Source: Candidatus Dojkabacteria bacterium (GTDB lineage: Bacteria; Patescibacteriota; Dojkabacteria; JAFGLO01). From it: DNA of 64,000 nt. The position numbers and the translations under genes were made by a program. This document shows positions 36,066 to 57,475 of the stretch, piece by piece. The notes beneath the pieces are model-generated. The model ran no database searches. It was not told the DNA's origin and saw only the letters and a list, made by a program, of their open reading frames with translations. Every line of letters starts with the position of its first letter. Within the stretch, counting starts at the first letter, position 1. The stretch spans positions 3,847 through 67,846 of the forward strand of contig JAFGLO010000015.1 of NCBI GenBank assembly GCA_016927995.1. The letters run 5' to 3'.

Positions 36066-36066
36066 A

Positions 36067-36513: not shown

Positions 36514-36519
36514 TGTTTG

Positions 36520-39015: not shown

Positions 39016-39042
39016 ATGCGTTAGAATAAAGAGTAATTTTAT

Positions 39043-40356: not shown

Positions 40357-40374
40357 TTTATATAGCCAATTGTA

Positions 40375-41136
40375 TCACAGTTCCAGGCGTTCTGCGATAA
40401 TTATAAGTCTGTGGGTTCCAACTCCAAGTGGCCAACAAGTCATAAGTGTTACAATTTCTTTGCCTTCAATTCCTGACAACATGGTTAGATCTTCAGGGGA
40501 TGTGATTTTTACCATTATAGTCTTATACTCTAGGGTTTTACCGTCACGGACTACCTGAACGGTATCTCCGATATCAATATCTTTTAGTCTTGTAAAAATA
40601 GTTTCGGGAAGGTTCGGATATTTGTTAAATACATTATCTGTTGTGCTGTGCCCATATATAAATGAGTTACCACCGTCACCGGGGAGTGGAGTATACTTAA
40701 AATGAGCAACCCCTTGTTTAAGGGCTGTTTCATACCGGTTTTTGTCGGAACTATCAACGTTTGAGGTTATTTTAATATTTGAGATTCCAACTGCGTCTAT
40801 GGTTATTGTAAGTGGGGAGGTGTACGTTGTATTCACAACTATCTTTGAATTTTGTTCGGACTGCTCAGCGAGTGGTGAATTAACTACAATATTTTCAAAA
40901 TAGCTTGCGCCCGGATCGTAGTATTCAATTTCGGTGATACTTGGCTCTACCGGTTTATAAAAAATATCTTTAAGGTAAGGTGCGACGTATTGAAGCCCAA
41001 TTGGTAAGAACATTACAGCAAAAATCCCAAGGGATATTAAAAATGAGAAGGTGCCTAAAACCTTTGAGAAATTGATCTTGTGTTCGTTTGTTTTTGAGGC
41101 TTCTTTATATTTTACCTTTACTTTTACCATAGTCAT
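40375..41136 (-). CDS. Sortase family transpeptidase
   Basis: N-terminal TM anchor. Catalytic His is in ..SFIYGHSTTD.., Cys in ..VTLMTCWP.. (TLxTC), and a conserved Arg in ..HRLIIIAER. Confidence 0.7.
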   Translation of the reverse strand: MTMVKVKVKYKEASKTNEHKINFSKVLGTFSFLISLGIFAVMFLPIGLQYVAPYLKDIFYKPVEPSITEIEYYDPGASYFENIVVNSPLAEQSEQNSKIVVNTTYTSPLTITIDAVGISNIKITSNVDSSDKNRYETALKQGVAHFKYTPLPGDGGNSFIYGHSTTDNVFNKYPNLPETIFTRLKDIDIGDTVQVVRDGKTLEYKTIMVKITSPEDLTMLSGIEGKEIVTLMTCWPLGVGTHRLIIIAERLEL

Positions 41137-41225
41137 TTATATTTTAGTGGTGTTTGATTGTCAACAACTTAATAAGTATAATCGGTGCGTGTTACAAAGG
41201 TTATAACTTTGGGTTTTTTAAAAAA

Positions 41226-42326
41226 ATGAAGCGTGATTATTATGAAATTCTTAATGTAGACAAGGAAGCAACCGAGGCGGATATCAAGAAAGCATACAGG
41301 AAACTTGTAAAAAAGTGGCATCCGGATGTTAATAAGGCTGCCGATGCCGAGGAAAAATTTAAAGAGGTTCAGGAAGCCTATGAGGTATTGTCTGACAGTA
41401 GGAAGCGTGAACAGTACGACTCTTTTGGGCATTCTGGCGTGGGTGATGGTATGAACTTCAACGAAGGTTATTACGATATGGGTAGTATGAGTGGGATGGG
41501 AGGAATGGAAGATATTTTAAACCAGTTTTTTGGTGGAAGTGGATTTTCGTTTGGGTCAATGTTTGGCGGTGACGGGTTCGGAACCGGAAGTGCAAGTGCT
41601 AGAGCCGAGCGCAGTAGGTTTAGTCCCGACGATATTCACGTTAACGCAACGCTTTCGTTAGAGGAAGCCAACGAAGGATTAACTCGCGAGATTGAATTTG
41701 AATTTAAAGGTGTTTGTAACAGCTGTAAAGGAACGGGTGCAAAGAATGAGGAGTTTACCTCCTGTAAAGAGTGTAATGGTAAGGGTGTTGTAAGGTCGGT
41801 TCAACAATCGTTCTTTGGACAAATGGTAGTGCAGCGGGCCTGTGCAGTTTGTGGGGGCAGTGGTAGCATTCCCAAGGCTGTTTGTTCGGAGTGTAACGGC
41901 AAAGGTTGGATTCCGCAGAAGGAAAAATTAAAGATTAAAATTCCCGTTGGTGCGTATGACGGGCTTGTGCTTAGGTTTAGAGGGGATAATAGAGGCGATC
42001 TTTATGTACACGTGAAAGTTAAGTCACACAATGTTTTTACAAGGGATGGTAACGATGTTTTTATTGACATAGATGTTCCTTTGGTTACAGCGGTACTTGG
42101 CGGCGAGATTTTAATTCCTACCCTTTATGGTGATGTTCGACTTAAGATTCCCGCAGGTACGCAGCCTAACGATATTATAAAGGTAAAACAGTATGGTACT
42201 TACATTGTAGGTAACAGTTCACAAAAAGGTGATTTGTATGTAAACTGTAGTATAACTATTCCGAAAAAACTTTCCCCAGAGGAAAAGGAGATTTGGGAAA
42301 AACTTAGTACAGTTAAAGGTAAATGA
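41226..42326 (+). CDS. dnaJ: Chaperone DnaJ
   Basis: J-domain ([27 protein letters not shown]), a G/F-rich region, four CxxCxGxG zinc-finger repeats and a C-terminal domain. Confidence 0.9.
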
Positions 42327-42730
42327 CTCTAAACAGTCGAGTTAGAACAATTATCTTCTATATTTTCATGGTTTGTGGGGTTACTGCATTGGGACTTATT
42401 ATTTATGTCAAAGCTTTGCATAAAGAGTCAAATGTTAAAGGAAAAACTGTTTCGAAAACAAATCCGGTGGAGGCTAACGTTACAATGGTTGGGGGAAATT
42501 GTTTTTTGGCATATTGGGAAACAGAAGAAGAGTCAATTGGATACGTAAAATATGGATCTTCCCCCGATACTATTAATCTTGTCGGGAAAAACAAAGAGGG
42601 GTTTATTTACTCAACCCGTCACGAAATTAAAGTTTGTGACCTTACCGAGCCTGAATATTACGTTATTATCGTCTCCGACGGGGTCCCTTATGGGCTTAAT
42701 GGGGTACCAATTAAGGTTCAACGAGAGTAG
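42323..42730 (+). CDS. Hypothetical membrane-anchored protein (135 aa)
   Basis: The ORF overlaps the dnaJ stop. N-terminal TM ([20 protein letters not shown]). Confidence 0.4.
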
Positions 42731-43013
42731 GGACAGGTCTAGACCGACACCCCTTTTGCAAACGACTAGCTGGTGGTGCTTTCCGAGAAGTAGTGTGCGG
42801 GTGTGTGCATAGTCGAATTAAAATTGCAGGTAGCCCTTGAATGTAAGGGTTGGAGTCAGATTGTTACAATAAATAGCCTTAGAATGTCTCCACAACTTAT
42901 TATACTTGCGGATTATTGGGGATAATACGTTAAATCCTAGACCATCACAAGGGCATACGTAAACGATGATGCACACAGTGATACAACGGGCCATGTCGGT
43001 CTAGACCTGTCCC
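42730..43013. repeat. 20-bp perfect inverted repeat (GGGACAGGTCTAGACCGACA / TGTCGGTCTAGACCTGTCCC) enclosing ~244 nt of non-coding sequence between convergent genes
   Basis: Left arm 42730-42749 and right arm 42994-43013 are exact reverse complements. Each arm contains the palindrome GGTCTAGACC. Confidence 0.9.
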
Positions 43014-43031
43014 TACGTCAGGAAATAATTT

Positions 43032-45275
43032 TTATTTGTTTTTTACCTTTCTAACGACGCTTTCCTCAAAATGCTTCTTAGGCTTTGTATACTTTAGGAC
43101 AAGCAAACTTTCCGAACTATCGCCAACACCCGTAAACTTCAGCTTTGGAAGCTTAACAAACCATTCACCCTTGTAAAGCACTATTGCAATACCTAGTAGT
43201 GTCAAAGGAATTATTATTGCTATTGGCATGTCAAGAATTCCTGTGTCCGGACTGCAGGTTTGTTCGACAGGGAATGCATATTCGTCGTATCCTGGGTTGC
43301 CGTCTTCTATCTCTATGGTTATTTCGTTTACATTTTGACCGGTTACGGCCGCAGTTGTTGCTAATGCCGTAAATGTAATCGTTACATCGGCTCCTGATAC
43401 CGGCGTTATTGTCCAGTTTCCGGTCCATACCAGTGTTGTTACTCCGTTTTGAGTTGTAATGGTTGGTTCGACAGCTGTTGCCGTTCCTGAACCTATTCGT
43501 ATTCTTGCCGAATTTGCTTGATATGTGAACCCTGGTGGTAATATGTCGGTTATTCTTGTTATTACTTCTGTTGTTTGAACGTTTCCAGTTACTGTAAATG
43601 CTGCGACATTATTGGGTGGGACTCGTTCTACACAAATAGGGCCTGTTTTTTCAACAGCCATTTCGCCTGGGGCACGTAAGGTTGCATTTACTTGACATGC
43701 TGTTGAGGTTACGGGATCAGCTATTCCCGCAAATCTAATATCAACTCTTACGGAACAAAGATCGCCGTCATCGGCCCCTGCGGGCGGGGTAAAGACAAAT
43801 CCTCTGTTATCGGTTGTTGCCGTTGAATTATAGGTATGAATTTCACTTGCCGAAATTGTTCCGTCACAGTTTTGGTCGACTCTCCAGATGTATTGTTGTA
43901 CTGCGGCTGTTCCGCCTGCAGTTACGGTAAAGTTTCGAAGAGTTCCGGTTGAGTTTGTTAACACTATTGTGTCATTTGGAAGGACGGATACACAAACTCC
44001 ATCAGTAAGTACTTGAGTTCGACTTGCGGAAAGTGTGCTGTTACATATATCGGCGCCATAGAACGAACCACTTATTTCCGTTCTTCCGTAAACCGTACAA
44101 GTGTCACTTTGGACACCACTTGCAAGAGTCATTGTAACATTTACTGCAGGATTTCCATCAAAGTAACGCCTTACTCCCTGTGCAGTTGTTTGTCCACCTA
44201 CTGATAGAGTAGTAGATGAATTTCCACAGTTAACCGTATACTCTACTCTTGTTATGTTGCCATTTCCTCCGGTTAGGGTATAACTTCGGGCTGCAGTTCC
44301 TGCAGGCAGACCGGATACAGAGGTTGGTGTAATACCGGCACAGTATGGAGTTTCAGTTATGGTCCCGCCACGTTTACACCATTTGTATACCCAGCTTGGA
44401 TTGTTACAGGTTCCGCAAAGAGTTTTACATCCATTACCAAAAACAGAACAACCTGTTTTACTAGTTGAATCACCTGTTATCCCACAGTCGTCATAGCCTA
44501 CAGGACAGGTTGGTAGGGTGCAACCGTCAGCATAAGGACCTGTATTTGATAATGAAGAACAACCACCAGGCCAAGTGCTTTGAGTTTGCCAATTTACACA
44601 TATACACCCGCTAGCGCCGTTACACTGGGAGATCGATGAAGAACAACAGTAGGTTGCTTCCGGATAAGTACATCTTATGGTATCTGGTTGGTCACATCCC
44701 CAGCCGTTACTTGCATTTCCACCTCCAAGACATGCAGTTCCTTGTCCCGTAGATGTACATGCACTACAAGAACCACCACAGTCTACTCCCGTTTCGTCTC
44801 CATCTAGAACGCCGTTCGAACAGTGGTCAGCAGCTCCACATACATTACAATGTGCGCCACCGCAGTCTACACCCGTTTCATCTTGATCTTGAATGCCATT
44901 ACTACAATGTGCCGCCGGTGGAGTTGCCGTACATCTCGGGTCATTGGCGCTTACCACTGTTGCACTGTCTTCTGTGGACCAGCATGTACCAGCTGTTCCT
45001 CCGCTACAACCTCTTTGCCATCTAACCCAATCTGATCCTTTACAGCCCTCTTCGTTATCGTCGATACAGTTGTTTCCGTCACCAACACCGCCCCAATTTA
45101 CACACTCTGTCCAACAGTCACACGACCAATCAGCTCTGCCAGTATCACTACCAACATTAAGTTTCCACAAAAGGTAGCCACCGGCGCCGGCAGTAATAAC
45201 CGTTAACACTGTGAAAATAATTAGAATGGTTTTGGTTTTCTTTTTCTTCGTGCTTTCGATGACTTGAGTGCTCAT
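43032..45275 (-). CDS. Cys-rich surface protein with an N-terminal TM anchor, repeated HCSNGxxDxDETGVDCGGxxCxxC modules, beta-sandwich repeats and a C-terminal hydrophobic segment
   Basis: 747 aa. The N-terminus is ..ILIIFTVLTVITAGAGGYLLW. The repeated modules are ..HCSNGIQDQDETGVDCGGAHCNVCGAADHCSNGVLDGDETGVDCGGSCSAC.. The C-terminal TM is MPIAIIIPLTLLGIAIVLY. Confidence 0.65.
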   Translation of the reverse strand: MSTQVIESTKKKKTKTILIIFTVLTVITAGAGGYLLWKLNVGSDTGRADWSCDCWTECVNWGGVGDGNNCIDDNEEGCKGSDWVRWQRGCSGGTAGTCWSTEDSATVVSANDPRCTATPPAAHCSNGIQDQDETGVDCGGAHCNVCGAADHCSNGVLDGDETGVDCGGSCSACTSTGQGTACLGGGNASNGWGCDQPDTIRCTYPEATYCCSSSISQCNGASGCICVNWQTQSTWPGGCSSLSNTGPYADGCTLPTCPVGYDDCGITGDSTSKTGCSVFGNGCKTLCGTCNNPSWVYKWCKRGGTITETPYCAGITPTSVSGLPAGTAARSYTLTGGNGNITRVEYTVNCGNSSTTLSVGGQTTAQGVRRYFDGNPAVNVTMTLASGVQSDTCTVYGRTEISGSFYGADICNSTLSASRTQVLTDGVCVSVLPNDTIVLTNSTGTLRNFTVTAGGTAAVQQYIWRVDQNCDGTISASEIHTYNSTATTDNRGFVFTPPAGADDGDLCSVRVDIRFAGIADPVTSTACQVNATLRAPGEMAVEKTGPICVERVPPNNVAAFTVTGNVQTTEVITRITDILPPGFTYQANSARIRIGSGTATAVEPTITTQNGVTTLVWTGNWTITPVSGADVTITFTALATTAAVTGQNVNEITIEIEDGNPGYDEYAFPVEQTCSPDTGILDMPIAIIIPLTLLGIAIVLYKGEWFVKLPKLKFTGVGDSSESLLVLKYTKPKKHFEESVVRKVKNK

Positions 45276-45309
45276 AATACAATATAAAGGCAGAACTTAA
45301 TGGTAAACT

Positions 45310-46233
45310 CTACAATATTTTTATTAATATGGCAAGCGCTGTTTCGGGATCAATTAATGATCTTTTAACTTGGAAGTCGATATTTAGCAATTTTTCGAAG
45401 ATTTTTGTAATTCTGCTAATAGGAATTTGCGATCTTTGAAGGTTCGAAATAACAAATGGATGAATTTTTGTTTCAGCTGCAATTTCTTTTCCGGATTTTC
45501 CGGCAGTCTGCATAATTTTTACTGTATATAAAAGTCTGTATTCTCTTGCAATCATATTAAAAATAAACATAGGGTCAACCTTTGTATCAATAAGATTTTT
45601 AAAGGAGCGCATGGCTCTTGATCGGTTTGAGTCTTCAATGTCGCGAATAAGATTCCAAATTTCATATGAGTGGTGCTTGCTTGCAAAAGTCTCGATATCT
45701 TCCTGACTTAAGCTTTTACCGCTTGGTAAAAGACTAAGCTTCTCAATTTCACGTTGAATAAGAGCAGGGTCGGCACCCTGACTTTCAATAAGTTTTTCGG
45801 TTGCATACAAGTCCAGTTTAACACCTTCCTTTTGTGCAATGGCATTAACCCAGCCGTTAAGGTCACGTTTGCTTGGTTCTTCAACCCTTGTAAATTTGCC
45901 ATTTTCGGAAAGCTCTTTGTAGACTTTTGTATTTTTGGGAATACACTGATTACTCCAAATAAATATATCTTTGGGGCTTTTTAAAATGCTTTCGATAAGT
46001 GTTACGAGATCATCCTTTTTTACACCCAGAATCCTTTTAATAACAAGAAGCTCCTTTTTAGAAAAAAGTGAGCTCTCAAAAAGAGAGTCGATTAAATTAT
46101 TAATGTCGTCAATTTCACTGCAATCAAAGACTCTGCATAGAACGCCGGGGTTTTTCTCCTTATAACTCGAAATCATCTCATCCAATTTCGCAATACTTAA
46201 ACCCTCGTTTGTTCCATCAATAGTTATGATCAT
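45310..46233 (-). CDS. holA: DNA polymerase III delta subunit (HolA-like)
   Basis: Length and pattern (..SLFSKKELLVIKRILGVKKDD..; C-terminal ..YEIWNLIRDIEDSNRSRAMRSFKNLI..MIAREYRLLYTVK) resemble HolA domains I-III. The call is by pattern only. Confidence 0.55.
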   Translation of the reverse strand: MIITIDGTNEGLSIAKLDEMISSYKEKNPGVLCRVFDCSEIDDINNLIDSLFESSLFSKKELLVIKRILGVKKDDLVTLIESILKSPKDIFIWSNQCIPKNTKVYKELSENGKFTRVEEPSKRDLNGWVNAIAQKEGVKLDLYATEKLIESQGADPALIQREIEKLSLLPSGKSLSQEDIETFASKHHSYEIWNLIRDIEDSNRSRAMRSFKNLIDTKVDPMFIFNMIAREYRLLYTVKIMQTAGKSGKEIAAETKIHPFVISNLQRSQIPISRITKIFEKLLNIDFQVKRSLIDPETALAILIKIL

Positions 46234-47765
46234 TCTTCTATTGCAATAGAATTTGTTCCAAGGAAGATGGATATATTCTCAACATAAAGTGGAGCTAGTT
46301 CAAATTCATTGGTTTCATTGACAGAATAGCCCTCTTCGGTTAAGTAATTTGTAATCGATGAAATTGTTGCAGGTGCTAATGCATTTTCGTTTTCAACAAT
46401 TGTAATGCCTGTTGTAGTGGCACCATAATATCCGATAAAGACAAATTTATTGTATTTGTACTCAGTAAGTAGATCGCTATAAATCTGATAAGCTTCACTG
46501 TAACCGACGCCTGAATTGTAAACATAGATTAAGGCCTTTTCATTTATTAGCTCGGGATCTTCAATGAATGCCCGTACAAAATCTTGCACATTTGTATAGT
46601 CATAATAAAGTGGGGTAGGACTTATTATGTATGCTTGATCAGACATAATTGGAATAGAACCTTCACGTAGAATAGTATAATTCCCAATTGATGGGTCAAG
46701 CACGATTCCTGTTGTTTGGGGAATTCCATCAGTTAAGGCGATTTGGACTGCAGATTCCACAGTAGGGAGGGTTACATTGTAAAGCTTAATGTTTTTTCCG
46801 ACTGCTTTTACTATTTCCCAAAGAGTACTTGCATTAAGAAGAGACTTGTCACTTTCAAGTTTATAGCGAACTGCATCAATTATTTTCTGTTGGCGTCTGC
46901 CTCTGGCAAAGTCGGAACCTTCAGGCCAGGCTCCATGGCGTGACCTAGCAAATTTTACTGCTGTTTCTCCGTCCATATGAGTAAGTCCTGCGGTAAAACT
47001 AATTGTTTCGTATCCGCCGTTATAGGTTGGAAATTCGTAGTCAGTAAAGCTGTTTTCCACGTCCACATCAACTCCGCCTATAGCGTTAATCAGGTCGGCT
47101 GCACCTTGCAAATTAACAACAGCGCCATAATGAATATGAATTCCTATGTAATTCTCAACTGCAGCTGCAAGATATGAAAGCCCGACACTGCCATCAATAT
47201 CAGTTACCGGTTTTCCGGTTTTCTCACTTTCTATGTTCATTGCCGTAATATACATTGTGTTTATGCGTGCGTAATATTCTTTTCTGTCGGGAAACTGTAC
47301 AACGGTATCACGTGGAATAGAGATAAGATATGCTTCCTGAGTAGATCTGTCATAAGAGGCGATCATGATTGTGTCGGTATTTGAATACTCGCCGTTGGGT
47401 CGGGTATCTATTCCCACAATCAAGACGTTGGTTCGTCCAAACTCATCGGTTTCAAGTACCGGATTGTTTGATAAGACCTCGAGTATACCTTCCCAACTTA
47501 ACTCGAGTCCGCTTCCTTTAAGTATGTCGTACCAGTCCCTAAAAAACACAAATCCTTTAATACCAAAGTATATAAGAGGGATTGAAAGAACAATAAGCGT
47601 AGGAATAAACCACTTCTTTTTAAAAAGGCGTGAAAAAAACTGCTTAAATTTCCCCGGCTCTCTTTTGGAATTGTTTTTGATTATTGGAGTTTTTACTGGT
47701 TTCAGGGATGACGTTACGGAACTTATCGGTTTGGTCTCAACTTGCTTTAAATTGATCTTTTTCAC
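46230..47765 (-). CDS. LytR-CpsA-Psr (LCP) family cell-envelope polymer transferase
   Basis: TM anchor, then ..NVLIVGIDTRPNG..TDTIMIASYDRSTQEAYLISIPRDT..ARINTMY..GIHIHYGAVVNLQGAADLINAIGGVDVDV..HMDGETAVKFARSRH..ARGRRQQKII.. = the LCP core. Confidence 0.75.
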   Translation of the reverse strand: MKKINLKQVETKPISSVTSSLKPVKTPIIKNNSKREPGKFKQFFSRLFKKKWFIPTLIVLSIPLIYFGIKGFVFFRDWYDILKGSGLELSWEGILEVLSNNPVLETDEFGRTNVLIVGIDTRPNGEYSNTDTIMIASYDRSTQEAYLISIPRDTVVQFPDRKEYYARINTMYITAMNIESEKTGKPVTDIDGSVGLSYLAAAVENYIGIHIHYGAVVNLQGAADLINAIGGVDVDVENSFTDYEFPTYNGGYETISFTAGLTHMDGETAVKFARSRHGAWPEGSDFARGRRQQKIIDAVRYKLESDKSLLNASTLWEIVKAVGKNIKLYNVTLPTVESAVQIALTDGIPQTTGIVLDPSIGNYTILREGSIPIMSDQAYIISPTPLYYDYTNVQDFVRAFIEDPELINEKALIYVYNSGVGYSEAYQIYSDLLTEYKYNKFVFIGYYGATTTGITIVENENALAPATISSITNYLTEEGYSVNETNEFELAPLYVENISIFLGTNSIAIEE

Positions 47766-48123
47766 TATTGATTTTTGTAAATAATGGTTAGTATTCTAGC
47801 AAGATTACTCGTAAGAGGCTAGTGGTATATGCAAAACACTTGGGTTTACGTCGTTTTAGGGGCTTTGGTAAGTGAGACTGAGGTTTTCTGTGTTAGGATT
47901 TCAATTTGTCTAAGAATTGACTTTATTTCATCTTCCGATGGTGATTTTGAGCTTATTGCCCTAAGTAAAAGTTCCCATAAAGCCTTTACTTCCGAAATAT
48001 CTGTAAGTAAGTTCCTCCTAAGTGGTAGCGTCATTGATTGTAATATCAAATTACTTTCTTGTTCTATTATAAGGCTAAATGGATAATAATTTCCAATTGT
48101 TGTTGCTAGCGTGGTGACAACAG

Positions 48124-48569
48124 TAAAAGGGGATGTTGAACCTCTTCTCTCATAGTTATCTTCCAGAGAGGATTATTTCACTATTTCACTACTTAATCGT
48201 CCTCCGTTGATCTGTGTGTTCATCGGAAGCCCTTTGCTTATTTTGCCTTTTTGCTAAAGCGATTTCCTCTTCTCACACTAGCTCTTCGGAGATTACTTCA
48301 CTATTTCACTACTTAAGCTTCCGTCGATTCCTATGTTCGAAGTGAACCCTTTATCTGTTTTATTTTGTTGTTAAAGCTTGCCACTTCTCTCATAGGTATC
48401 TTCCGGAGAGGATTACTTCACTATTTCACTGTTTCACTGCTTAAGCTTCCGTCGATTTCTACGTTCGAAGTGAACCCTTTATCTGTTTTATTTTGTTGTT
48501 AAAGCTTGCCACTTCTCTCATAGTTATCTTCCGGAGGATTACTTTACTGTTTTACTACTTCACTGTTTC
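48124..48569. repeat. Tandem array of ~117-128-bp units (~3.6 copies), each beginning cttctctcatag.tatcttccggagaggattacttcactatttcact(gtttcact)..
   Basis: Units lie at 48124-48246, 48247-48363, 48364-48491 and 48492-~48569. Units 2 and 3 are nearly identical in their second halves; unit 1 has a diverged second half. Each unit contains phased TTCACT direct repeats with ~8-bp periodicity. Confidence 0.9.
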
Positions 48570-48651
48570 ACTGCTTATTCCGAACCAGATAAACCTAAGT
48601 CTCGGGATCCTCGAAATTGATAAATCAATTTCGGGACTGTATACTGTTTGT

Positions 48652-49038
48652 ATGATTCATCTGGGAATAGATTTTGGAGAAAAACGAATAGGGCTTGCCG
48701 TAAGCGACGCTAAGGAGATTGTTAGTGCTCCGCTTTCCATAATAAAGCGAGTCTCAGACGAAGCGGCAATTTCCCAAATCCTTGAGCTTGCTGTTCTTAA
48801 AAAGGTTGAAAAAATTGTTGTCGGAATGCCTCAGGCGTTTGCCTCTGTACATGAAACGCAGGTAAAAAGAGTAAGTTCCTTTATAGAAAAGCTTAACAAT
48901 AGTACAGATATTCCAATTGAGACCTTTACCGAAGCATATACGTCAAAAATTGCCCATACGCAGAGGAAAGGTAAACGGCCAATAGATGATCTTGCTGCGG
49001 CTCATATTCTGCAGCGGTATTTGGATAGTAGGCTATAA
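48652..49038 (+). CDS. ruvX: Holliday-junction-resolvase-like protein YqgF/RuvX (pre-16S rRNA nuclease)
   Basis: MIHLGIDFGEKRIGLAVSD.. is the RuvX N-terminus. The ORF-track start at 48493 lies within the repeat array; the ATG at 48652 is preferred. Confidence 0.8.
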   Translation: MIHLGIDFGEKRIGLAVSDAKEIVSAPLSIIKRVSDEAAISQILELAVLKKVEKIVVGMPQAFASVHETQVKRVSSFIEKLNNSTDIPIETFTEAYTSKIAHTQRKGKRPIDDLAAAHILQRYLDSRL

Positions 49039-49044
49039 TCGGTA

Positions 49045-49150
49045 AAGTAGTGAAATAGTAATATAGTGAAATCTGGAAGGTTGCTGTGCGAGAGGTGATT
49101 CGCTTTAGCACAAAAGCAAAACAAGCAAAGGGCTCACATCGAACACGGGA
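49045..49150. repeat. Inverted partial copy of the tandem-array unit (reverse complement of approximately 48196-48297) immediately downstream of ruvX
   Basis: aagtagtgaaatagtaatatagtgaaatc..gattcgctttagcacaaaagcaaaacaagcaaagggctcacatcgaacac is the reverse complement of ..gtgttcatcggaagccctttgcttattttgcctttttgctaaagcgatttc..gattacttcactatttcactactt, with several mismatches. Confidence 0.75.
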
Positions 49151-49260
49151 ACCGACAGAGGGTCAGTTAGCAAGTAGGGACATGTCCGACAGCCGTAGGG
49201 ACATGTCCTGGACTTGTCCTTAAAGTAGTAAAACAGTACTAACTATTATATAATGAGCAC

Positions 49261-51450
49261 ATGGCAAAACGTGGACGACCGCCCAAAAATAGGGAATTAA
49301 CAATTAAAAGCGATGAAACCAGAGTCTTCTTTGCACTTATGCTTTTGGGATTGGGACTTTTACTTCTAAGTAGTTCATTTTTATCGGGTGAATTTTTTAA
49401 TCAGATTTCTAAGGCAATTGGTGATAGTACCTATGTGCTGGGAATCTTTTTTATGGCGTTGTCTCTTAGATTGTTCGGTTATAATAATTGGTTTTCGGGT
49501 ACTCAAACGCTAATCGGTTTTTTCTCGGTGTGGGCAGTGTCACTTCCGTTTCTTCACTTTCTTCTTCCTATTGATAAGGGTGCTGAACTTGCCGACGAGG
49601 GTCGAGGTGGCGGTATTTTGGGTTACGCTATTCACAAAACCTTATATAATTGGTTCGATCTCGAGGGTGAGTTTATTATTCTTGTAATTATTGGACTTAT
49701 TGCAATAAGTGTTACCACCGGAATTTCTATAAGAGTACTTCAGAAGTTGGTAGAAAAAATTTTTACCGTAGGTGGAAAATCAGTTTCCAAGGTTACCGAA
49801 ACAGTTGGTAATAGTATAACTCAAATCAAAGAATCCACGCCCGCTTTTGGTGATGATTATGTTCAAGAAGTTGGAAAATTAGGAGAGCTTTACGATAAAC
49901 AGGAAACAAGAGCTGAAATCGGCTCGAAGGTGGATACAAAAACTGAACAAACCGGCACACAGCCGAAACCTAAATCTTCGGATGATAGCAGGTTTTTGTA
50001 CCCAGATTGGGAGTATCCGCCAATTTCTTTACTTGACCCTGTTCCCCCGAAGTCAGATCCAAGTGAAAGAAATGAAGCCCAAGCCGAAGTTATCGAAAAG
50101 ACTTTACGTAGCTTTGGAATATCATCAGAAGTAGTCGACATAAATTATGGGCCCACGGTTGTTCAATATGCTTTAAAAATCTCTGTAGGAATTAAAGTTA
50201 ATAAAATTAGCAATTTAAGCAAGGACTTGGCACTTGCACTGGCTGCGCCTTCGGGACAGGTAAGAATAGAGACACCAATACCCGGAACATCTTTTATAGG
50301 AATTGAGGTTCCGCACGAAAAACCTGATATTGTATCACTTCGTGAATTAATGAGTCTTCCTGACATGAAGGAAGATAGATTTGCGCTGCCGCTCCCATTT
50401 GGAAAAAATGTTAGCGGGTTAAGTATTGTTCGTGATCTTACTAAAATGCCGCATATGTTAATTGCAGGTGCAACCGGTTCCGGAAAATCAATCTCAATAA
50501 ATGGTTTTATAATGGGACTAATAATGACCTTAAGTCCCGATCAGTTAAGGCTCATTTTGGTTGATCCCAAAACCGTTGAATTTGCTCCGTATGCAGATAT
50601 TCCTCACCTTATGGTGCCTGTTGTAACCGACGTTAATAAGGTTGTAAGTGCCTTGACTTGGGCGGTTGAGGAAATGCAATGTAGATATGCACAGTTACGT
50701 GAGGCAGGAACCAGGAATATTGCCCAGTATAATGAGAAAAAAGGTTACACGTCCATGCCGTATATAGTAGTAATTATCGATGAAATGGCCGATCTTATGT
50801 TATCAACGGGAATCGATATTGAACACAAGATTGTACGACTTGCACAGATGGCACGTGCCGTAGGTATTCACTTGTTGCTTGCCACGCAAAGACCTTCAGT
50901 AAATGTAATAACGGGGCTTATTAAAGCCAATGTTCCTGCCCGCATAGGTATGACGGTTGCTACGAGTATTGATTCCCGGGTAATATTGGATACAGTTGGT
51001 GCGGAAACTCTTCTTGGTAACGGTGATATGTTGTTTAAAGCCCCTGATGTTGCAAACGCAGTTAGAATTCAGGGAGTATACACCAAAAATCAGGAGATAG
51101 AACGTGTAGTCGAATTTCTGAAAAAACAGGGTGAACCCGTATATAACGAGGCAATTCTTGAAGCAAATACCGCCGGTTTAACAGATATTGATTCCGATGG
51201 AGGTTCCCCCGAAACCTGGGTAAATGATTCCGTGTTTCTTGATGCAATAAAGGTTGTGGCTTCTGCTCAGCAAGGATCTGCCTCATATATCCAACGTAAG
51301 CTACGTATTGGATATAACCGTGCTGCTCGATACATCGACCAGATGGAAGAAGTCGGTGTAGTCGGTCCACGTGACGGAAGTAAGCCCCGTGAGGTTTTGA
51401 TTACTAATGCAGATGAATTCATTGAGAGGCTTAAACATGGACCAGGTTGA
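49261..51450 (+). CDS. ftsK: DNA translocase FtsK/SpoIIIE
   Basis: N-terminal TM segments, Walker A LIAGATGSGKS, Walker B VVIIDEMADL, and the gamma domain ..GSASYIQRKLRIGYNRAARYIDQMEEVGVVGP. A near-leaderless TATAAT lies at 49249-49254. Confidence 0.9.
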   Translation: MAKRGRPPKNRELTIKSDETRVFFALMLLGLGLLLLSSSFLSGEFFNQISKAIGDSTYVLGIFFMALSLRLFGYNNWFSGTQTLIGFFSVWAVSLPFLHFLLPIDKGAELADEGRGGGILGYAIHKTLYNWFDLEGEFIILVIIGLIAISVTTGISIRVLQKLVEKIFTVGGKSVSKVTETVGNSITQIKESTPAFGDDYVQEVGKLGELYDKQETRAEIGSKVDTKTEQTGTQPKPKSSDDSRFLYPDWEYPPISLLDPVPPKSDPSERNEAQAEVIEKTLRSFGISSEVVDINYGPTVVQYALKISVGIKVNKISNLSKDLALALAAPSGQVRIETPIPGTSFIGIEVPHEKPDIVSLRELMSLPDMKEDRFALPLPFGKNVSGLSIVRDLTKMPHMLIAGATGSGKSISINGFIMGLIMTLSPDQLRLILVDPKTVEFAPYADIPHLMVPVVTDVNKVVSALTWAVEEMQCRYAQLREAGTRNIAQYNEKKGYTSMPYIVVIIDEMADLMLSTGIDIEHKIVRLAQMARAVGIHLLLATQRPSVNVITGLIKANVPARIGMTVATSIDSRVILDTVGAETLLGNGDMLFKAPDVANAVRIQGVYTKNQEIERVVEFLKKQGEPVYNEAILEANTAGLTDIDSDGGSPETWVNDSVFLDAIKVVASAQQGSASYIQRKLRIGYNRAARYIDQMEEVGVVGPRDGSKPREVLITNADEFIERLKHGPG

Positions 51451-52411
51451 TTTCGGATTGATAACCCCGGGAAAACTTCTTAGGGATGCACGAATAGCCA
51501 AGGGTATTTCTGTAGATGAGGTTGCAAATGCAATCAAAGTTAGAAAGGACTATGTAATTGCCCTGGAAGCCAATAAATTTGATACTTTTGACTCTCCCGT
51601 TTATGCAAAGGGATTTCTAAAATTATACTCCAGCTATCTTTCTGTACCGACCGAGAAAGTTATTGCACTATATCGACGATTTACAGACGAAGACGTTGCA
51701 ACGGAAATAAAACCTAAGCCCGATGGGATTCCACTGCCCAAAATAGTTATTACACCATCAACAATTGCCGTTTTGGCAGTTGTTTTGGTAATTGGATTTA
51801 TCATTACCTACTTGGTAATCCAGTTTGCCACGTTTCAAAAGCCTCCCAAACTTGAACTTGTATGGCCTGCCAGTGAGCGAACCGAGGTAAATTCAGAAGT
51901 TGTAACGATAACCGGCTATACGGTGTTATCGGCAAATGTTTACGTAAATGATGAAAGTGTTACTGTCTCAAATGATGGCTATTTTTCGGCTACTGTAAAA
52001 CTTAACCGGGGTGATAATCAAATCGTCATAAAGGCCACAAACGATGATAATATTGGCAAGAGTAATACACTTTCTGTGTACATAAGATACATACCCGTTG
52101 AATCACAAGATGTGAACGAAACTGATGTGACCGAAGAAATCATTCCCGATTCATTTCAAGCCAAATTGCAAATTGATGGAGGTGACGCATGGATTGTATT
52201 TTCGGTTGACGGAGAAAATAAATATACTCAAACACTTCAGTCGGGTTTCGACGAAAGCTTTACGGTATTCCAGAATCTTTCAATTACTTCGGGTCGTGGA
52301 CAGTTTACCAAGCTGTATATAAATGGTGAACTAACTCCACTTACCCAGAATAACCAAGGTATTGTAGGGTTGGGGTGTAGGCTTGTGAGTGGCGAAGTCG
52401 TTTGCAATTAG
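51437..52411 (+). CDS. RodZ-like cytoskeleton protein (HTH_XRE N-terminus, single TM, C-terminal domain)
   Basis: ..LLRDARIAKGISVDEVANAIKVRKDYVIALEANKFDTFDSPVYAKGFLKLYSSYL.. matches the RodZ N-terminal HTH. The TM is AVLAVVLVIGFIITYLVI. Confidence 0.5.
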   Translation: MDQVDFGLITPGKLLRDARIAKGISVDEVANAIKVRKDYVIALEANKFDTFDSPVYAKGFLKLYSSYLSVPTEKVIALYRRFTDEDVATEIKPKPDGIPLPKIVITPSTIAVLAVVLVIGFIITYLVIQFATFQKPPKLELVWPASERTEVNSEVVTITGYTVLSANVYVNDESVTVSNDGYFSATVKLNRGDNQIVIKATNDDNIGKSNTLSVYIRYIPVESQDVNETDVTEEIIPDSFQAKLQIDGGDAWIVFSVDGENKYTQTLQSGFDESFTVFQNLSITSGRGQFTKLYINGELTPLTQNNQGIVGLGCRLVSGEVVCN

Positions 52412-52423
52412 CCATTTTAGCCA

Positions 52424-53095
52424 TTAGTGCCTTGGATTTAATGCAGAAGCAAAACACATTCCGACTATATTTTTCCCGTGTATCGGCTTTGCTGCTTCCA
52501 TCATTGTTGCACCCGTTGTGATTACGTCATCAAAGAGAATAATATTTTGCGGGAGTTTTCTGTCGAAGGAAATCAAATCGAATGCAGCTTTTACGTTTTT
52601 TTCTCGTTGTGACGATTTTTGTCTTGCCTGGGGATTTGTATGTCTAATCCGCTTTAGAATTTTAATTAGTGGGATTTTAAGGCGAATGGATATAGCCTTT
52701 GCCAACAGTTCCGACTGATTATATCCACGCCAGTTTTGGCGTTTCTTTGCCAAGGGGACGGCTGTTATACAAGAATTTTTGGGGAGCCTGAAGTATGATA
52801 ACCTTTGAATAATTAGCTCGACTATAAAGTTTGTGAGTCTATAGCCGCCTTTGTATTTGAACGCACTTAGGATTTTGGCAGTACACCGGTTGTATCTATA
52901 GGGCGTAATAATTTGTGAGATATTTGTTTGAGTTTGACACTGCTTATGGGTGAACCCGCTAAAGCTTCCTCTTTTACAAACAATACAAAGTTGCGAGAAA
53001 TCCGATAGCATGGAAGTACATGCCTTACAAAGATAGGGTCCGGGAATTCCACAGTTTAAGCAAAATGTAGGAAATAAATATGAAAGCAAGTCCAT
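52424..53095 (-). CDS. comFC: ComF family competence protein (phosphoribosyltransferase domain)
   Basis: N-terminal Cys pairs (CLNCG..CKAC..CIVC), then a PRTase motif ..IILFDDVITTGATM.. Confidence 0.65.
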   Translation of the reverse strand: MDLLSYLFPTFCLNCGIPGPYLCKACTSMLSDFSQLCIVCKRGSFSGFTHKQCQTQTNISQIITPYRYNRCTAKILSAFKYKGGYRLTNFIVELIIQRLSYFRLPKNSCITAVPLAKKRQNWRGYNQSELLAKAISIRLKIPLIKILKRIRHTNPQARQKSSQREKNVKAAFDLISFDRKLPQNIILFDDVITTGATMMEAAKPIHGKNIVGMCFASALNPRH

Positions 53096-53201
53096 AAAAT
53101 ATTTTAATAAAACTCTCAAACAACTGCTAGAACTAAATCTGGCAAAATGCAAGAATGCTGACAGATTATTTTAGGAAAGTGATCCGAAAGTGCCTGTTTA
53201 C

Positions 53202-53522
53202 CTAAAGATGCTGATCCACGATTTTTTTAATCTCTGCTTTGGGTCTTGCTCCTACAATTGTCTCCACAACCTTACCGTCTTTAAAAAGAATAAGTGCAGG
53301 AATGCTCATAATGTTGAACTTTGCAGCCGAAGTTCTATTCTCATCAACATTAAGCTTGCCAATGGTTACCTTTTCTGCATAATCTGTTGAAAGCCCTTCG
53401 ATAATGGGGGTCATCATTAGGCAGGGTCCGCACCAAGTTGCCCAAAAATCTACAAGTACTAGCCCCTGTGATTTTTCGACGTCGGTTTCGAAATTAGCAT
53501 CGTTAAATTGGACTACTGTCAT
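53202..53522 (-). CDS. trxA: Thioredoxin
   Basis: ..VLVDFWATWCGPCLMM.. is the WCGPC active site; 106 aa. Confidence 0.93.
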   Translation of the reverse strand: MTVVQFNDANFETDVEKSQGLVLVDFWATWCGPCLMMTPIIEGLSTDYAEKVTIGKLNVDENRTSAAKFNIMSIPALILFKDGKVVETIVGARPKAEIKKIVDQHL

Positions 53523-53670
53523 TTTTCTATAGACTAAATTAGCTATCAGAATATTAATACCCTTTTAAGGTAAGGTCAATTGGTGGCGAGTTAACGTGAC
53601 TTGGATATAGGTGATGTTTTATATAATCAAATAATGTATAATTTACCAAGATTATTTAAGGATTTTTCGA

Positions 53671-54507
53671 ATGATGCTTCTTGATGGAAAAGCTCTTTCA
53701 AAAAAAATAACTCAGGATCTAAAAATCAAGACTGAAAATATTGATCCAAAGCCCAAAATGGCCGTTATTCTTGTAGGTGATGATTATGCCAGTAAGCTTT
53801 ATGTAAAAATGAAAAAGAGACGAGCCGAAAAGATTGGAATGATCTGTGACGTTATAAGGTATGACGATATAACAACGGCCGAGTTAATATCCAAAATAAA
53901 TCTTTTAAATAAAGACGATACAGTTGATGGAATTATGCTTCAATTACCACTTCCCGAAGGGTTTGATAAAGAAAAAATTTTAAACAGCATAGACTATACA
54001 AAGGATATCGATGGATTAACTGCCACATCACTCGGGCTTGTTGCTCAAGGCAAACCGTATTTTGTTCCTGCAACATCGCTTGCAGTAATCAGGCTTCTTG
54101 ATGAGTATAAAGTTGATATTGTCGGAAAGGATGTTGTAATAATAGGTGCAAGTAGCTTAATAGGTATTCCGCTTGGACTTTTGCTTAGATATAGAGGTGG
54201 TACGGTAACACTTTGTCATTCACGTACACAAGGACTAGACGAAGTGGCTCGTACTGCCGACATATTAATCTCTGCCACGGGTAAACCACATTTGGTGAAC
54301 AGTGAATTCGTAAAGAAGGGCGCAGTAGTAATTGATGTCGGTATTGAACAGGACCCTGAGACTGGAGCAATTGTGGGAGATGTCGATACCGGTTCAATAA
54401 AAGACATTGCCAGTGCCGTTTCGCCTGTTCCTGGAGGAGTTGGTCCGCTTACTATAGCAATGCTTCTTAGTAATTTAATGGACGCAGTAACTCAAGATCC
54501 ATTATAA
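53671..54507 (+). CDS. folD: Bifunctional methylenetetrahydrofolate dehydrogenase/cyclohydrolase
   Basis: ..LDGKALSKKI..AVILVGDDYASKLYVKMKKRRAEKIGM..GIMLQLPLP..VVIIGASSLIGIPLGLLL..SPVPGGVGPLTIAML.. Confidence 0.9.
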   Translation: MMLLDGKALSKKITQDLKIKTENIDPKPKMAVILVGDDYASKLYVKMKKRRAEKIGMICDVIRYDDITTAELISKINLLNKDDTVDGIMLQLPLPEGFDKEKILNSIDYTKDIDGLTATSLGLVAQGKPYFVPATSLAVIRLLDEYKVDIVGKDVVIIGASSLIGIPLGLLLRYRGGTVTLCHSRTQGLDEVARTADILISATGKPHLVNSEFVKKGAVVIDVGIEQDPETGAIVGDVDTGSIKDIASAVSPVPGGVGPLTIAMLLSNLMDAVTQDPL

Positions 54508-54551
54508 CTCAACTTATAAAACAAAATAGAATCAATTAATGTATTAATAAA

Positions 54552-55838
54552 ATGAATGAGCCAATTGGTAAAGTCGATCCGGTAGTTGCCAAGCTTATTG
54601 AGTCCGAATCCAAGCGTCAAGAGGAAGGGCTTGAACTTATTCCTTCCGAAAATTATGTTTCGAGAGCAGTACTTTCCGCACTTGGATCAGTGTTTACTAA
54701 TAAATACTCCGAAGGATATCCTAAGCGTAGGTATTATGGCGGACAAAAATATACCGACCTTCTTGAAACAGAAGTAATAAACCGAGCCAAGACTTTATTT
54801 CACTGTGATCATGCAAACGTTCAACCTTTGTCCGGTGCTCCCGCAAACACTGCGGCTTATTTTGCGTGGTGTAATCCTGGTGACACAATAATGGCAATGG
54901 ATCTTACACATGGTGGACATTTAACGCACGGACATCCCGTTACCCACTTATCAAGATTGTTCAAATTCGTTAGATATAAAATAAAAGATATTGAAACCGG
55001 CGAAATTGATTATGATCACCTAAGGGATACAGCGCTTATGGAGCGGCCCAAAATTATTCTTGCCGGGTACACCTCGTACCCACGAAACTATAATTATAAA
55101 ATAATGGCCGATATCGCAAACGAGGTTGGGGCTGTTGCAATGGCTGATATTGCTCACATTGCCGGGCTTATTGCAGCGGGTGTAATTGACAATCCATTCG
55201 ATTTTGGGTTTCACATGGTTACGACTACAACGCATAAAACTTTACGTGGACCTCGTGCCGGCTTGATTCTTACTAGGGGAAAGGTTGGTAATCCACTTGC
55301 CAAAGTTAAACGGACAATTGAAAATTTGCCAACACTTGTTGACAGATCAGTTTTTCCGGGGCTTCAGGGTGGGCCGCATATGAATGCTATTGCGGCAATC
55401 GGTGTTGCACTGAAAGAAGCGTCAACAAAAGACTTCAAGGTGTACGCAGAACAGGTGATTAAAAATGCAAAGGTCCTGTCAACCGAACTTATGTCACTTG
55501 GATGTAAACTTGTTACAAACGGAACCGATAATCACTTAATGGTAATTGATTGCGTGAAATCTTTTGAAGTAGATGGCAAAATCGTCGAGGATGTACTTTC
55601 CAAAGTTGGTTTAAACCTTAACAAAAACGTTGTTCCGGATGATCCTTTACCTCCATATAAGCCAAGCGGAGTCAGACTTGGCACTCCGGCAATGACAACT
55701 CGCGGACTTAAAGAATTCGAAATGAAAGAAGTTGCAGAATTAATTGTAGAGTCAATAAATTCACGCAAGAACGAGACAAAGCTTAAGGCAATAAAAGAGG
55801 AGGTGACTGCACTTTGTAAAAGGTTTCCTGTATACTAG
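54552..55838 (+). CDS. glyA: Serine hydroxymethyltransferase
   Basis: ..LIPSENYVSRAVLSALGSVFTNKYSEGYPKRRYYGG.. together with the PLP-binding HMVTTTTHKTLRGPR. Confidence 0.95.
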   Translation: MNEPIGKVDPVVAKLIESESKRQEEGLELIPSENYVSRAVLSALGSVFTNKYSEGYPKRRYYGGQKYTDLLETEVINRAKTLFHCDHANVQPLSGAPANTAAYFAWCNPGDTIMAMDLTHGGHLTHGHPVTHLSRLFKFVRYKIKDIETGEIDYDHLRDTALMERPKIILAGYTSYPRNYNYKIMADIANEVGAVAMADIAHIAGLIAAGVIDNPFDFGFHMVTTTTHKTLRGPRAGLILTRGKVGNPLAKVKRTIENLPTLVDRSVFPGLQGGPHMNAIAAIGVALKEASTKDFKVYAEQVIKNAKVLSTELMSLGCKLVTNGTDNHLMVIDCVKSFEVDGKIVEDVLSKVGLNLNKNVVPDDPLPPYKPSGVRLGTPAMTTRGLKEFEMKEVAELIVESINSRKNETKLKAIKEEVTALCKRFPVY

Positions 55839-55866
55839 AAAAGACTATTGTGTTACGGAATTCATG

Positions 55867-55875
55867 TGCTATAAT
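55867..55875 (+). promoter_or_regulatory. Extended -10 element (TGcTATAAT) upstream of the pilin gene at 55910
   Basis: tgctataat at 55867-55875, about 35 nt before the ATG. Confidence 0.35.
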
Positions 55876-55909
55876 AACAATAGCTGTAACTGAATTTAAA
55901 TAAATAAAA

Positions 55910-56242
55910 ATGCTTGATATCGATAAAATAATAATGCAAGCTGCGCCTGGTACATCTTCCGCATCGGGGGTATCAACTCCCTCGGGTGTTCCACAAACAC
56001 TTGCCGAGCTTGTTCAACGTGCATTGACTCCCATTTTTGCAGTTGCGGGGGTTGTACTTTTGGGGCTTTTTATTTACGGTGGATATACCTGGCTTATGAG
56101 TGCAGGTGATCCAGGTAAACTTAAAGAAGCTCAGGGAATTATTGTTAACGCTATTATCGGTATTGCAATTGTAATGAGTGCGGCACTTTTAACTAGAGTT
56201 GTGGGGCATCTTTTGGGTTATGAAGGTATGGGTATATTTTAA
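55910..56242 (+). CDS. TrbC/VirB2-like type IV secretion pilin-like membrane protein (paralog 2)
   Basis: ..FAVAGVVLLGLFIYGGYTWLMSAGDPGKLKEAQGIIVNAIIGIAIVMSAALL.. has the same architecture as 6917..7231. Confidence 0.5.
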   Translation: MLDIDKIIMQAAPGTSSASGVSTPSGVPQTLAELVQRALTPIFAVAGVVLLGLFIYGGYTWLMSAGDPGKLKEAQGIIVNAIIGIAIVMSAALLTRVVGHLLGYEGMGIF

Positions 56243-56251
56243 GTTTATTTA

Positions 56252-56587
56252 ATGCTTCTTGTAATGGATAATTTATCAAAGGTTATCAGTACAATAGGGA
56301 AAATTACTGTTGACCAAGGAATTACGGATCCCAACGAATTTGTTAGAAAAGCAATAACAATCGCTGTTTCCGTAGCAGGTATAGTAGCTTTGGTTTACGT
56401 GGTTTTAGGTGGGTATAAATTTTTGATTTCTTCGGGTGATTCAAATAAATACCAGGAGGCTATTCAAACAATAATGTATGCTGTAGTTGGGCTTGTTGTT
56501 GTTGCAATGAGTGGGCTTGTTATAAATTATGTCGGAAAAGTTTTAGGCTTAAAGAATCTCTTTGATTTAAGCTCTCTTCTAAACTAA
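56252..56587 (+). CDS. TrbC/VirB2-like type IV secretion pilin-like membrane protein (paralog 3)
   Basis: ..VAGIVALVYVVLGGYKFLISSGDSNKYQEAIQTIMYAVVGLVVVAMSGLV.. Confidence 0.5.
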   Translation: MLLVMDNLSKVISTIGKITVDQGITDPNEFVRKAITIAVSVAGIVALVYVVLGGYKFLISSGDSNKYQEAIQTIMYAVVGLVVVAMSGLVINYVGKVLGLKNLFDLSSLLN

Positions 56588-56650
56588 CTCTAGAAAACAT
56601 AGAGTATTCATGATACAATACAGACTGATTTTAAATTCTTGTTATGTTTA

Positions 56651-56926
56651 ATGGCAAACTTATACGCAGCAAAAAGAGCAATTCGCACAATTAAAAGACG
56701 ATCCCGTCGGAATCAGGTTTGGAGAAATAAAATAACGTCAGTTGTTAAGGGATTTAAGAAATCCGGCAAAGTAAACGGGGAAGATTTAAAAACTGCATAC
56801 AAGACCCTTGATAAGGCTGCAAAAAATAACGTTATCCATAAGAATAAAGCAGCAAGGTTAAAATCAAGACTTGCAAAGGCTTCTGCCGATGTTAAGTCAA
56901 AGCCTAGTAAATCCAATAAAGCATAA
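56651..56926 (+). CDS. rpsT: 30S ribosomal protein S20
   Basis: MANLYAAKRAIRTIKRRSRRNQ....NNVIHKNKAARLKSRLAKA matches S20 (ANIKSAKKRA...GLIHKNKAARHKS..). Confidence 0.8.
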   Translation: MANLYAAKRAIRTIKRRSRRNQVWRNKITSVVKGFKKSGKVNGEDLKTAYKTLDKAAKNNVIHKNKAARLKSRLAKASADVKSKPSKSNKA

Positions 56927-56946
56927 GTTTTAATTAAGTATACATT

Positions 56947-57414: not shown

Positions 57415-57475
57415 GTCCCATTTGCCAGTCATTTCCCTTTAGTATAAAATCAATCATTAGTTTAATACTCTGCCC

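Follow-up and report, generated by a model that had tools for sequence, protein, structure and literature searches.

A palindromic repeat with phased octamer tracts brackets ruvX and coincides with an evolutionary inversion of this gene in Dojkabacteria

The intergenic DNA on either side of ruvX in a 64,000-nucleotide stretch of a Candidatus Dojkabacteria genome (GenBank assembly GCA_016927995.1, contig JAFGLO010000015.1, positions 3,847 to 67,846 of the forward strand; hereafter the window) bears a repeat unit with two distinct parts: an ~88-nt imperfect palindrome and, following it, a tract of short octamers in strict 8-bp phase. Units of this type form a tandem array upstream of ruvX, and a further full-length unit lies in the opposite orientation immediately downstream of the gene. 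In a related genome with the same gene neighborhood ruvX is on the other strand. Our preferred explanation, which we put forward tentatively, is that a palindromic repeat specific to this lineage multiplied locally and that its opposed copies mediated or accompanied a past inversion of ruvX. Under this explanation the unit would combine a palindrome capable of forming a hairpin or cruciform with a slippage-prone tract of two to four octamers, and one copy with an extra tract would have come to lie inverted across ruvX.

The array spans 48141-48577 and, with its register set by the inverted copy, consists of one decayed partial unit followed by three full units. The partial unit, U0 (48141-48195, + strand; repeat family D3 and alignment), retains the 3' arm of the hairpin and two octamers, and is recovered as a partial match (48156-48195, 31 bits) by R1, a covariance model built from the copies. 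The full units, each ~120-134 bp in length and all on the + strand, are: U1 (48196-48315, 108 bits), with its hairpin at 48203-48290 and the octamers TTCACTAT and TTCACTAC at 48297-48312; U2 (48316-48443, 130 bits), with its hairpin at 48320-48407 and three octamers at 48417-48440; and U3 (48444-48577, 133 bits), with its hairpin at 48448-48535 and four octamers at 48543-48574, the first two of which are TTTACT variants. U3 contains a duplicated 16-bp octamer pair. The original prediction, made from the sequence alone, had described four head-to-tail units of 117-128 bp: the head-to-tail arrangement is borne out, while the count and lengths are revised to those given here. Its tandem ~120-bp array upstream of ruvX is real by several measures: Tandem Repeats Finder (TRF) reports 48144-48560 with a period of 128, 3.4 copies and a score of 425, along with an inner pair (48297-48565) at 91% matches; a gapless repeat finder places six in-register copies of the TTCACT tract at spacings of 120, 120, 8, 126 and 8 nt; and the array matches itself in blastn with E=3e-64. 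Against the whole window, blastn of the array returned nothing below E=0.01 beyond the array and the copy downstream of ruvX.

The relationships of the units point to amplification in place. The gapless repeat finder pairs 48294-48408 with 48422-48536 at 95% identity; U2 and U3 are 95% identical over 115 nt and have in common a 61-nt exact block that is the sole exact repeat of at least 31 nt. Informative sites resolve three lineages of copies: U1, U2/U3 and the inverted copy. The high identity of U2 and U3 with their exact block, the octamer number of two, three or four and the decay of the edge unit are the grounds on which we suggest that the unit may have been amplified locally by tandem duplication, the newest duplication having given U2 and U3. 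The range of two to four boxes is also what replication slippage would give. The units, of 120-134 bp, adjoin directly and have no unique spacers between them; the array is not a clustered regularly interspaced short palindromic repeat (CRISPR) locus, in which repeats of ~23-55 bp alternate with unique spacers of comparable length. The original prediction had rightly set CRISPR aside.

Every full unit, be it in the array or inverted, holds the ~88-nt imperfect palindrome, which RNAalifold folds, whichever strand is used, into a single long hairpin of 23 pairs. Standard pairs make up 95.7% of the hairpin pair cells, and 8 of the 23 pairs show changes on both sides across the four copies. None of 500 column shuffles matched this pairing and covariation, and in a control with the partners slid by 1-3 columns the pairing dropped to 42-49%. 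Every copy also folds better than its own dinucleotide shuffles, with z between -2.0 and -4.4. The outermost stem shows a compensatory change from C-G to U-A, which argues for structure rather than for sequence-specific ends. Selection on an RNA from one strand would be expected to permit G.U and disfavor A.C. The mismatch cells of the hairpin comprise four G.T and three A.C (small numbers), a balance that fits a palindrome at the DNA level and not an RNA read from one strand; we infer that it is as DNA that the hairpin is maintained. The compensatory pattern can have arisen from several sources: selection on structure; selection for a hairpin or cruciform in the DNA; or correction of quasi-palindromes by template switching, which is a known mutational mechanism. 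This long hairpin with its compensatory substitutions, the main feature of each unit, had been overlooked in the original prediction.

The same compensatory changes would be expected if the units were structured RNAs: either a tandem array of small RNAs (sRNAs) with a further copy in the 3' untranslated region (UTR) of ruvX, or UTR stem-loops that influence how stable an mRNA is or how it is processed, in the manner of transcribed ERIC or BOX elements. Folding is somewhat better when the array is taken from the - strand and the downstream copy from the + strand (summed energy of -102.8 kcal/mol, against -93.8 kcal/mol in the opposite orientation); in the better-folding orientation the copies have z of -2.7 to -4.1, and the downstream copy would be part of the ruvX transcript right after the stop codon. 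However, the 4:3 division of G.U and A.C cells favors no strand, none of the units contains a promoter-like or terminator-like site in a consensus scan, and Rfam has no match in the window at the gathering threshold, those with E up to 10 being only chance-level eukaryotic ones. Copies are likewise absent from the rest of the window and from the relatives. We consider a structured RNA rather unlikely. The earlier suggestion of a composite repeat or sRNA family also loses ground, since no other copy was found anywhere searched.

These searches were as follows. With its filters off, the R1 model detected nothing in the 64 kb beyond the partial unit and the four full ones (48156-49165), and it had no match in the loci of the Dojkabacteria relatives that we fetched. 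A loop pattern that fits all four copies hit 22 loci in 185,579 species genomes, a set that does not include the source genome, and all of these were chance matches; the same pattern gave 10 loci in Joint Genome Institute (JGI) metagenomes, which matched in the loop only, and one chance match among IMG/VR viral contigs. A blastn search against plasmid and phage records gave no match. The unit resembles a miniature inverted-repeat transposable element (MITE) in being palindromic and within 50-500 bp, the 88-nt hairpin being present in every unit, but the dispersed copies typical of such elements are absent within the 64 kb by the covariance model. Target-site duplications are indistinguishable here because the flanking octamers belong to the periodic unit. 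Among open reading frames (ORFs) of 150 aa or longer in the interval 22.5-61.7 kb, a Pfam scan found no recombinase or transposase.

The inverted copy downstream of ruvX (49045-49165, - strand; covariance model and blastn) comprises octamer tract A at 49045-49072 and a hairpin at 49072-49159. R1 recovers it as a full-length unit at 49044-49165 with 126.8 bits, and blastn aligns 48228-48314 in reverse complement with 49134-49045 at 78.5% over 93 nt (E=5e-11). The original prediction had placed a partial inverted copy at 49045-49150; it does exist, and it extends to a full unit ending at 49165 with an additional octamer tract, B, at 49221-49241 (- strand; inverted pair I4, direct family D4). Tract B covers the -35 region of the ftsK promoter and includes an exact 16-nt inverted match to 48545-48560. 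Between the inverted hairpin and tract B the sequence reads as an insert of ~50 bp (49174-49220), with two copies of GTAGGGACATGTCC 21 bp apart and GGACTTGTCC next to them: it thereby places three 10-bp palindromes (GGACATGTCC twice, and GGACTTGTCC) just upstream of the ftsK promoter. The opposed arms are 69-79% identical, and their longest exact inverted matches are 15-16 nt. In its arms the inverted copy is like U2/U3 and in its loop like U1; a mosaic, recombinant origin was considered and set aside, as three independent lineages explain this pattern equally well.

The inverted repeats coincide with a real evolutionary inversion, because in a relative with the same neighborhood ruvX is on the opposite strand. 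Relatives were found via FtsK homologues, the nearest of which are at most 61% identical, and only one of them (contig L028; FtsK 61% identical) has the same holA-LCP-ruvX-ftsK-rodZ neighborhood, LCP being the LytR-CpsA-Psr gene. The order in L028 is: a large ORF (-), holA (-), LCP (-), ruvX (-; L028 5036-5452), a small ORF (+), ftsK (+), rodZ (+) and a phosphoribosyltransferase gene (-). Its RuvX is 48% identical to that of the window, and the two loci are collinear except for the flipped ruvX. Both end-points of the flip fall within the intervals that bear the opposed repeats in the window genome. The intergenic DNA of L028 has no repeats. The opposed repeats of the window probably mediated the inversion of ruvX, which may have happened in the lineage of the window. 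Recombination between the opposed copies would be the most economical cause of the inversion relative to L028; alternatively, a single rearrangement may have made the opposed copy and flipped ruvX at once.

In other FtsK relatives the gene upstream of ftsK is fusA or a giant CARDB gene, and in one relative ruvX follows lepA-recF. Among Dojkabacteria with FtsK 59-61% identical, ruvX is seen in three contexts or orientations (L035 13481-13858, L028 5036-5452 and window 48652-49038), an unusual mobility for a housekeeping gene. These differing contexts imply that ruvX moved repeatedly in the clade, and with them the direction of the inversion is not polarizable. RuvX and FtsK of the window are each 100% identical to proteins of a Candidatus Dojkabacteria metagenome-assembled genome. 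Relatives found with RuvX itself were uninformative: the next match is 46% identical, and the contexts are alaS-ruvX-yceG (mltG-type) ones from other phyla.

We read the arrangement as a scar of past rearrangement in tolerant intergenic DNA and not as a programmed switch, because the copies have diverged to 69-79% identity and the ruvX promoter lies inside the bracketed segment. Since this promoter flips together with the gene, inversion would alter only the read-through partners. The original prediction had pointed to the geometry of an invertible or excisable segment, and as geometry this stands: inverted repeats do bracket ruvX, and in L028 it has the opposite orientation and is co-directional with LCP-holA. 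An actively programmed segment, whose flipping would couple ruvX to either the LCP-holA operon or ftsK, is nevertheless highly improbable. It could draw on an independently assembled contig that ends unexpectedly where a block in common with the inverted copy stops (below), yet no recombinase was found in the ORFs scanned, the arms have exact matches of at most 16 nt, and a second contig crosses the downstream repeat without a reciprocal break. The fimS and hin switches are similar to this locus in having a segment bracketed by inverted repeats, with the opposite orientation in a relative; the ruvX locus differs from them in that no adjacent recombinase was found, the arms are long and diverged, and the bracketed segment is a whole gene with its own promoter instead of a promoter reading outward.

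Logan contigs of the run SRR13394437 provide an independent assembly. One of these (L077) corresponds to window 35310-48262 and another (L027) to window 48496-59458, both at 100% identity; together they reproduce U0, most of U1, the end of U3, ruvX on the + strand, the inverted copy and ftsK. The part between them, 48263-48495, and hence the copy number of the array, rests on one assembly. The right break is accounted for by the 61-nt exact block of U2 and U3. The left contig ends at 48262, 73 nt before the first repeated 31-mer (the assembly used k=31), and this is the last base of an 11-nt block, TGCTAAAGCGA, common to U1 and the reverse complement of the inverted copy. L027 runs unbroken through the inverted copy and the reciprocal position at ~49100, which argues against frequent reciprocal inversion, and both assemblies have ruvX in a single orientation. 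The breaking of a k=31 short-read assembly inside the array, with 48263-48495 present in one assembly only, would also be seen if the array were a mis-joined or collapsed repeat, a scenario that the original prediction had itself raised. As an account of the array as a whole this is scarcely credible: two independent contigs reproduce both of its edges at 100% identity, and duplicated reads would not show the divergence seen among U1, U2/U3 and the inverted copy. The locus is thus a breakpoint of short-read assembly with an uncertain copy number.

After each hairpin of the four full copies comes a tract of two, two, three or four contiguous boxes with the consensus TTYACTRY, phased at exactly 8 bp. 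The TTYACT core is kept, and the last two positions of the octamer vary by transitions. The window has 9 dimers of TTYACTRY where shuffles predict 0.16, and every one of them is at the ruvX locus; octamer pairs phased at 8 nt are found nowhere else in the 64 kb, and so at no other promoter. The TTCACT repeats with a spacing of ~8 bp in the original prediction are thereby confirmed and sharpened to exactly 8 bp. Its comparison with iterons and sites for response regulators or integration host factor (IHF) fares poorly against the strict 8-bp period: the sites of winged-helix response regulators have a period of 10-11 bp, and classical iterons of ~20 bp.

A strict 8-bp period is the spacing of operator- or centromere-like arrays to which ribbon-helix-helix proteins bind cooperatively; a small protein of this type or a similar one could coat the consecutive boxes here. 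MetJ, for instance, binds tandem 8-bp met boxes. The omega protein of pSM19035 binds 7-10 contiguous WATCACW heptads that overlap promoters (PMC9499535), and the 4-bp boxes of ParG sites may be direct or inverted and are separated by AT-rich spacers of 4 bp (PMC3130281). The octamer tracts are like these arrays (ParG parH/OF, omega, MetJ) in having contiguous boxes of 7-8 bp, several per site, direct or inverted, and near or over promoters; they differ in their box, which is TTYACT and not ACTC, WATCACW or AGACGTCT, in being embedded in a larger hairpin unit, and in that no cognate ribbon-helix-helix gene was found nearby. In the ruvX locus the targets of such a protein would be the divergent promoters of ruvX and of an orphan ORF with LCP, and the ftsK promoter. 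Both this mode of binding and this choice of targets are possible though unlikely. In their favor are the strict period, the presence of two to four contiguous boxes in both orientations, the conserved core with its variable 2-nt spacer, the position of tract B over the ftsK -35, an architecture matching that of the ParG and omega arrays (PMC3130281, PMC9499535), and comparable octamer arrays of TTCACTNN or TTTTTCAC that lie outside coding sequence on unrelated phage contigs. On the other hand, most tracts are 40-100 bp from the nearest promoter-like site, phased octamers are absent from other promoters in the 64 kb, no cognate protein was found among the small ORFs, which were scanned in part, and the 88-nt hairpin would be left unexplained.

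We considered two more specific candidates for the octamers. The orphan ORF (62 aa), which lies between LCP and the array, was rejected as the octamer-binding protein: it has no Pfam match or homologues, and its model is not of the ribbon-helix-helix type. The octamer TGTTTCAC equals a parS half-site; a role as parS was rejected, as the window has no palindromic parS. Arrays of three to seven octamers with a TTCAC-type core are present on several unrelated IMG/VR contigs (L057, L065, L053, L061 and L066): L057, a contig with a gene for a phage portal protein, has repeats of TTCACTCT along with three inverted copies of AGTGAATA at 7250-7400; L065 has seven copies of TTTTTCAC at 6306-6365; and the array of L053 is at 10373-10412. 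The arrays of L057 and L065 looked non-coding, and their flanking genes were uninformative. Several other matches to octamer arrays were in metagenome-assembled genomes of giant viruses.

The pairing of a hairpin with short direct repeats is also the layout of certain origins: rolling-circle double-strand origins, oriT regions and the phage P4 ori/crr have a hairpin adjacent to short direct repeats, and P4 crr is made of two 120-bp direct repeats, each with TGTTCACC octamers. The unit could accordingly be a module of a replication or transfer origin at which an initiator or relaxase-accessory protein binds the short direct repeats. Besides this layout, the idea could appeal to genes resembling those of type IV secretion systems (T4SS) within the window, but we regard it as very unlikely. 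The GC skew is positive on both sides, which rejects a chromosomal origin or terminus; there is no skew switch, and the neighboring ORFs have no initiator domain. Further, no Rep, relaxase or primase domain was detected in the ORFs scanned, there is no parS-like site, the repeats are of 8 bp against ~17-22 bp for iterons, and no plasmid or phage record is similar. The T4SS-like genes are a PrgI-like gene (26951-27775), a VirB4/TraG-like ATPase (28894-30993), two small ORFs with a Pfam label of T4SS pilins (55910-56587, from the table of the L027 locus) and a coupling-protein-like ATPase of the T4SS-like group (57476-59935). No relaxase was seen alongside them (26951-30993, 55910-59935).

Among known repeats, the closest in form are families such as ERIC/IRU, Correia, RUP, BOX and the Rickettsia RPE, which share with the unit of the ruvX locus a length of ~100-150 bp (~127 bp in ERIC/IRU) and an imperfect palindrome forming a long hairpin. 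Like it, ERIC-type elements are intergenic, occur in either orientation, and sit just after a stop codon or between promoters. However, these families are dispersed, with tens to hundreds of copies per genome, whereas all detectable copies of the ruvX repeat are at one locus and in tandem, and the ERIC-type elements lack the 8-bp-phased tract. A relationship in sequence to these families is not to be expected. Intergenic minisatellites, or variable-number tandem repeats (VNTRs), such as the mycobacterial MIRUs are comparable in having head-to-tail units of tens to ~130 bp, and the array is minisatellite-like in its recent duplication (U2/U3, 95%) and in breaking short-read assembly; unlike minisatellites, it has a palindromic unit with compensatory changes, an inverted copy across a gene and a second-order 8-bp repeat inside the unit. 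The type III toxin-antitoxin systems ToxIN and CptIN similarly have direct repeats arrayed in tandem just ahead of a gene for a nuclease, but the units at ruvX are of 120-134 nt and not ~34-45 nt, a promoter-like site is situated between array and gene with no terminator there, and the nuclease is the housekeeping RuvX/YqgF and not ToxN. We therefore do not count the array and ruvX as a type III toxin-antitoxin pair. The anatomy is unusual enough to set this repeat apart among intergenic palindromic repeats and minisatellites; a new mechanism is as yet without support.

Several observations weigh against our preferred explanation. Compensatory changes over three lineages can also stem from selection for structure, in which case the unit would function as RNA or as a protein/DNA recognition element. 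The conserved TTYACT core with a variable 2-nt spacer, and one tract over the ftsK -35, fit protein binding. The confinement of the copies to one locus holds within the 64-kb window of the source genome. The left contig break at 48262 could reflect heterogeneity of the population, with a variant junction, or a drop of coverage at the hairpin. Finally, with a single relative sharing the neighborhood, neither the direction of the inversion nor the role of the repeats in it can be polarized.

To the left of the array is LCP (46230-47765, - strand; Pfam PF03816, E=1e-32); the bracketed gene is ruvX (48652-49038, + strand), a YqgF-family nuclease (Pfam PF03652, E=6e-31); and to the right are ftsK (49261-51450, + strand), with the Pfam FtsK_SpoIIIE domain (E=2e-56) and also alpha, gamma and 4TM domains, and a RodZ-like gene identified by Pfam (51407-52411, + strand). 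The 887-nt divergent intergenic region described earlier between LCP and ruvX is divergent but not wholly non-coding: the orphan ORF reads at 47849-48037 (- strand) with its own promoter-like site, and the truly non-coding part is ~48040-48651. This ORF has no homologue besides itself in 1.84e9 representative proteins, and its AlphaFold2 (AF2) single-sequence model is a two-helix hairpin (pLDDT 80). The equivalent gap in L028 has a non-homologous 67-aa ORF (L028 5765-5968).

A consensus scan of 47600-49400 gave only two sigma-70-like sites, both pattern matches: TTGATA-17-TATACT at 48617-48645 (+ strand; 10 of 12 consensus positions), toward ruvX, and TGGAAA-18-TATAAT at 48066-48095 (- strand), toward the orphan ORF and LCP. 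The array occupies the space separating these divergent promoters, and the inverted unit that from the ruvX stop codon to the ftsK promoter. Over the ruvX -35 lies a perfect 22-bp palindrome, CGAAATTGAT-AA-ATCAATTTCG (48612-48633), which occurs once in the window against a chance expectation of 0, and which looks like a candidate operator for a dimeric repressor. The ATG of ruvX is 6 nt past its -10, and that of ftsK 6 nt past a TATAAT at 49246-49251 by sequence reading. TATAAT-like boxes 5-9 nt before the ATG recur at many ORFs (ruvX, ftsK and those at 39043, 40375, 21677 and 28894), and inspection by eye of the 60 nt preceding each of 45 ORF starts showed no evident Shine-Dalgarno motif. Because of these two features, leaderless or very short-leader mRNAs are plausibly widespread in this Dojkabacteria genome, those of ruvX and ftsK included.

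A more ambitious proposal joins both parts of the unit in a cis-element not described before, with a protein coating the boxes, the adjacent conserved hairpin or cruciform belonging to the same recognition module, and opposed copies that would let ruvX flip occasionally between the LCP-holA and ftsK transcription units. We think this quite improbable; if true, it would be a device for the control of cell envelope and cell division in a bacterium of the candidate phyla radiation (CPR) with apparent leaderless transcripts. The units do sit between cell-envelope (LCP) and division (ftsK, rodZ-like) genes and, if functional, would be among the few cis-regulatory elements defined in Dojkabacteria. 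The hairpin model R1 is a concrete probe for new CPR genomes. If the ordinary explanation of a locally amplified palindromic repeat is correct, then the locus documents how, in a CPR genome of very small size, a housekeeping gene may be rearranged by a private repeat.

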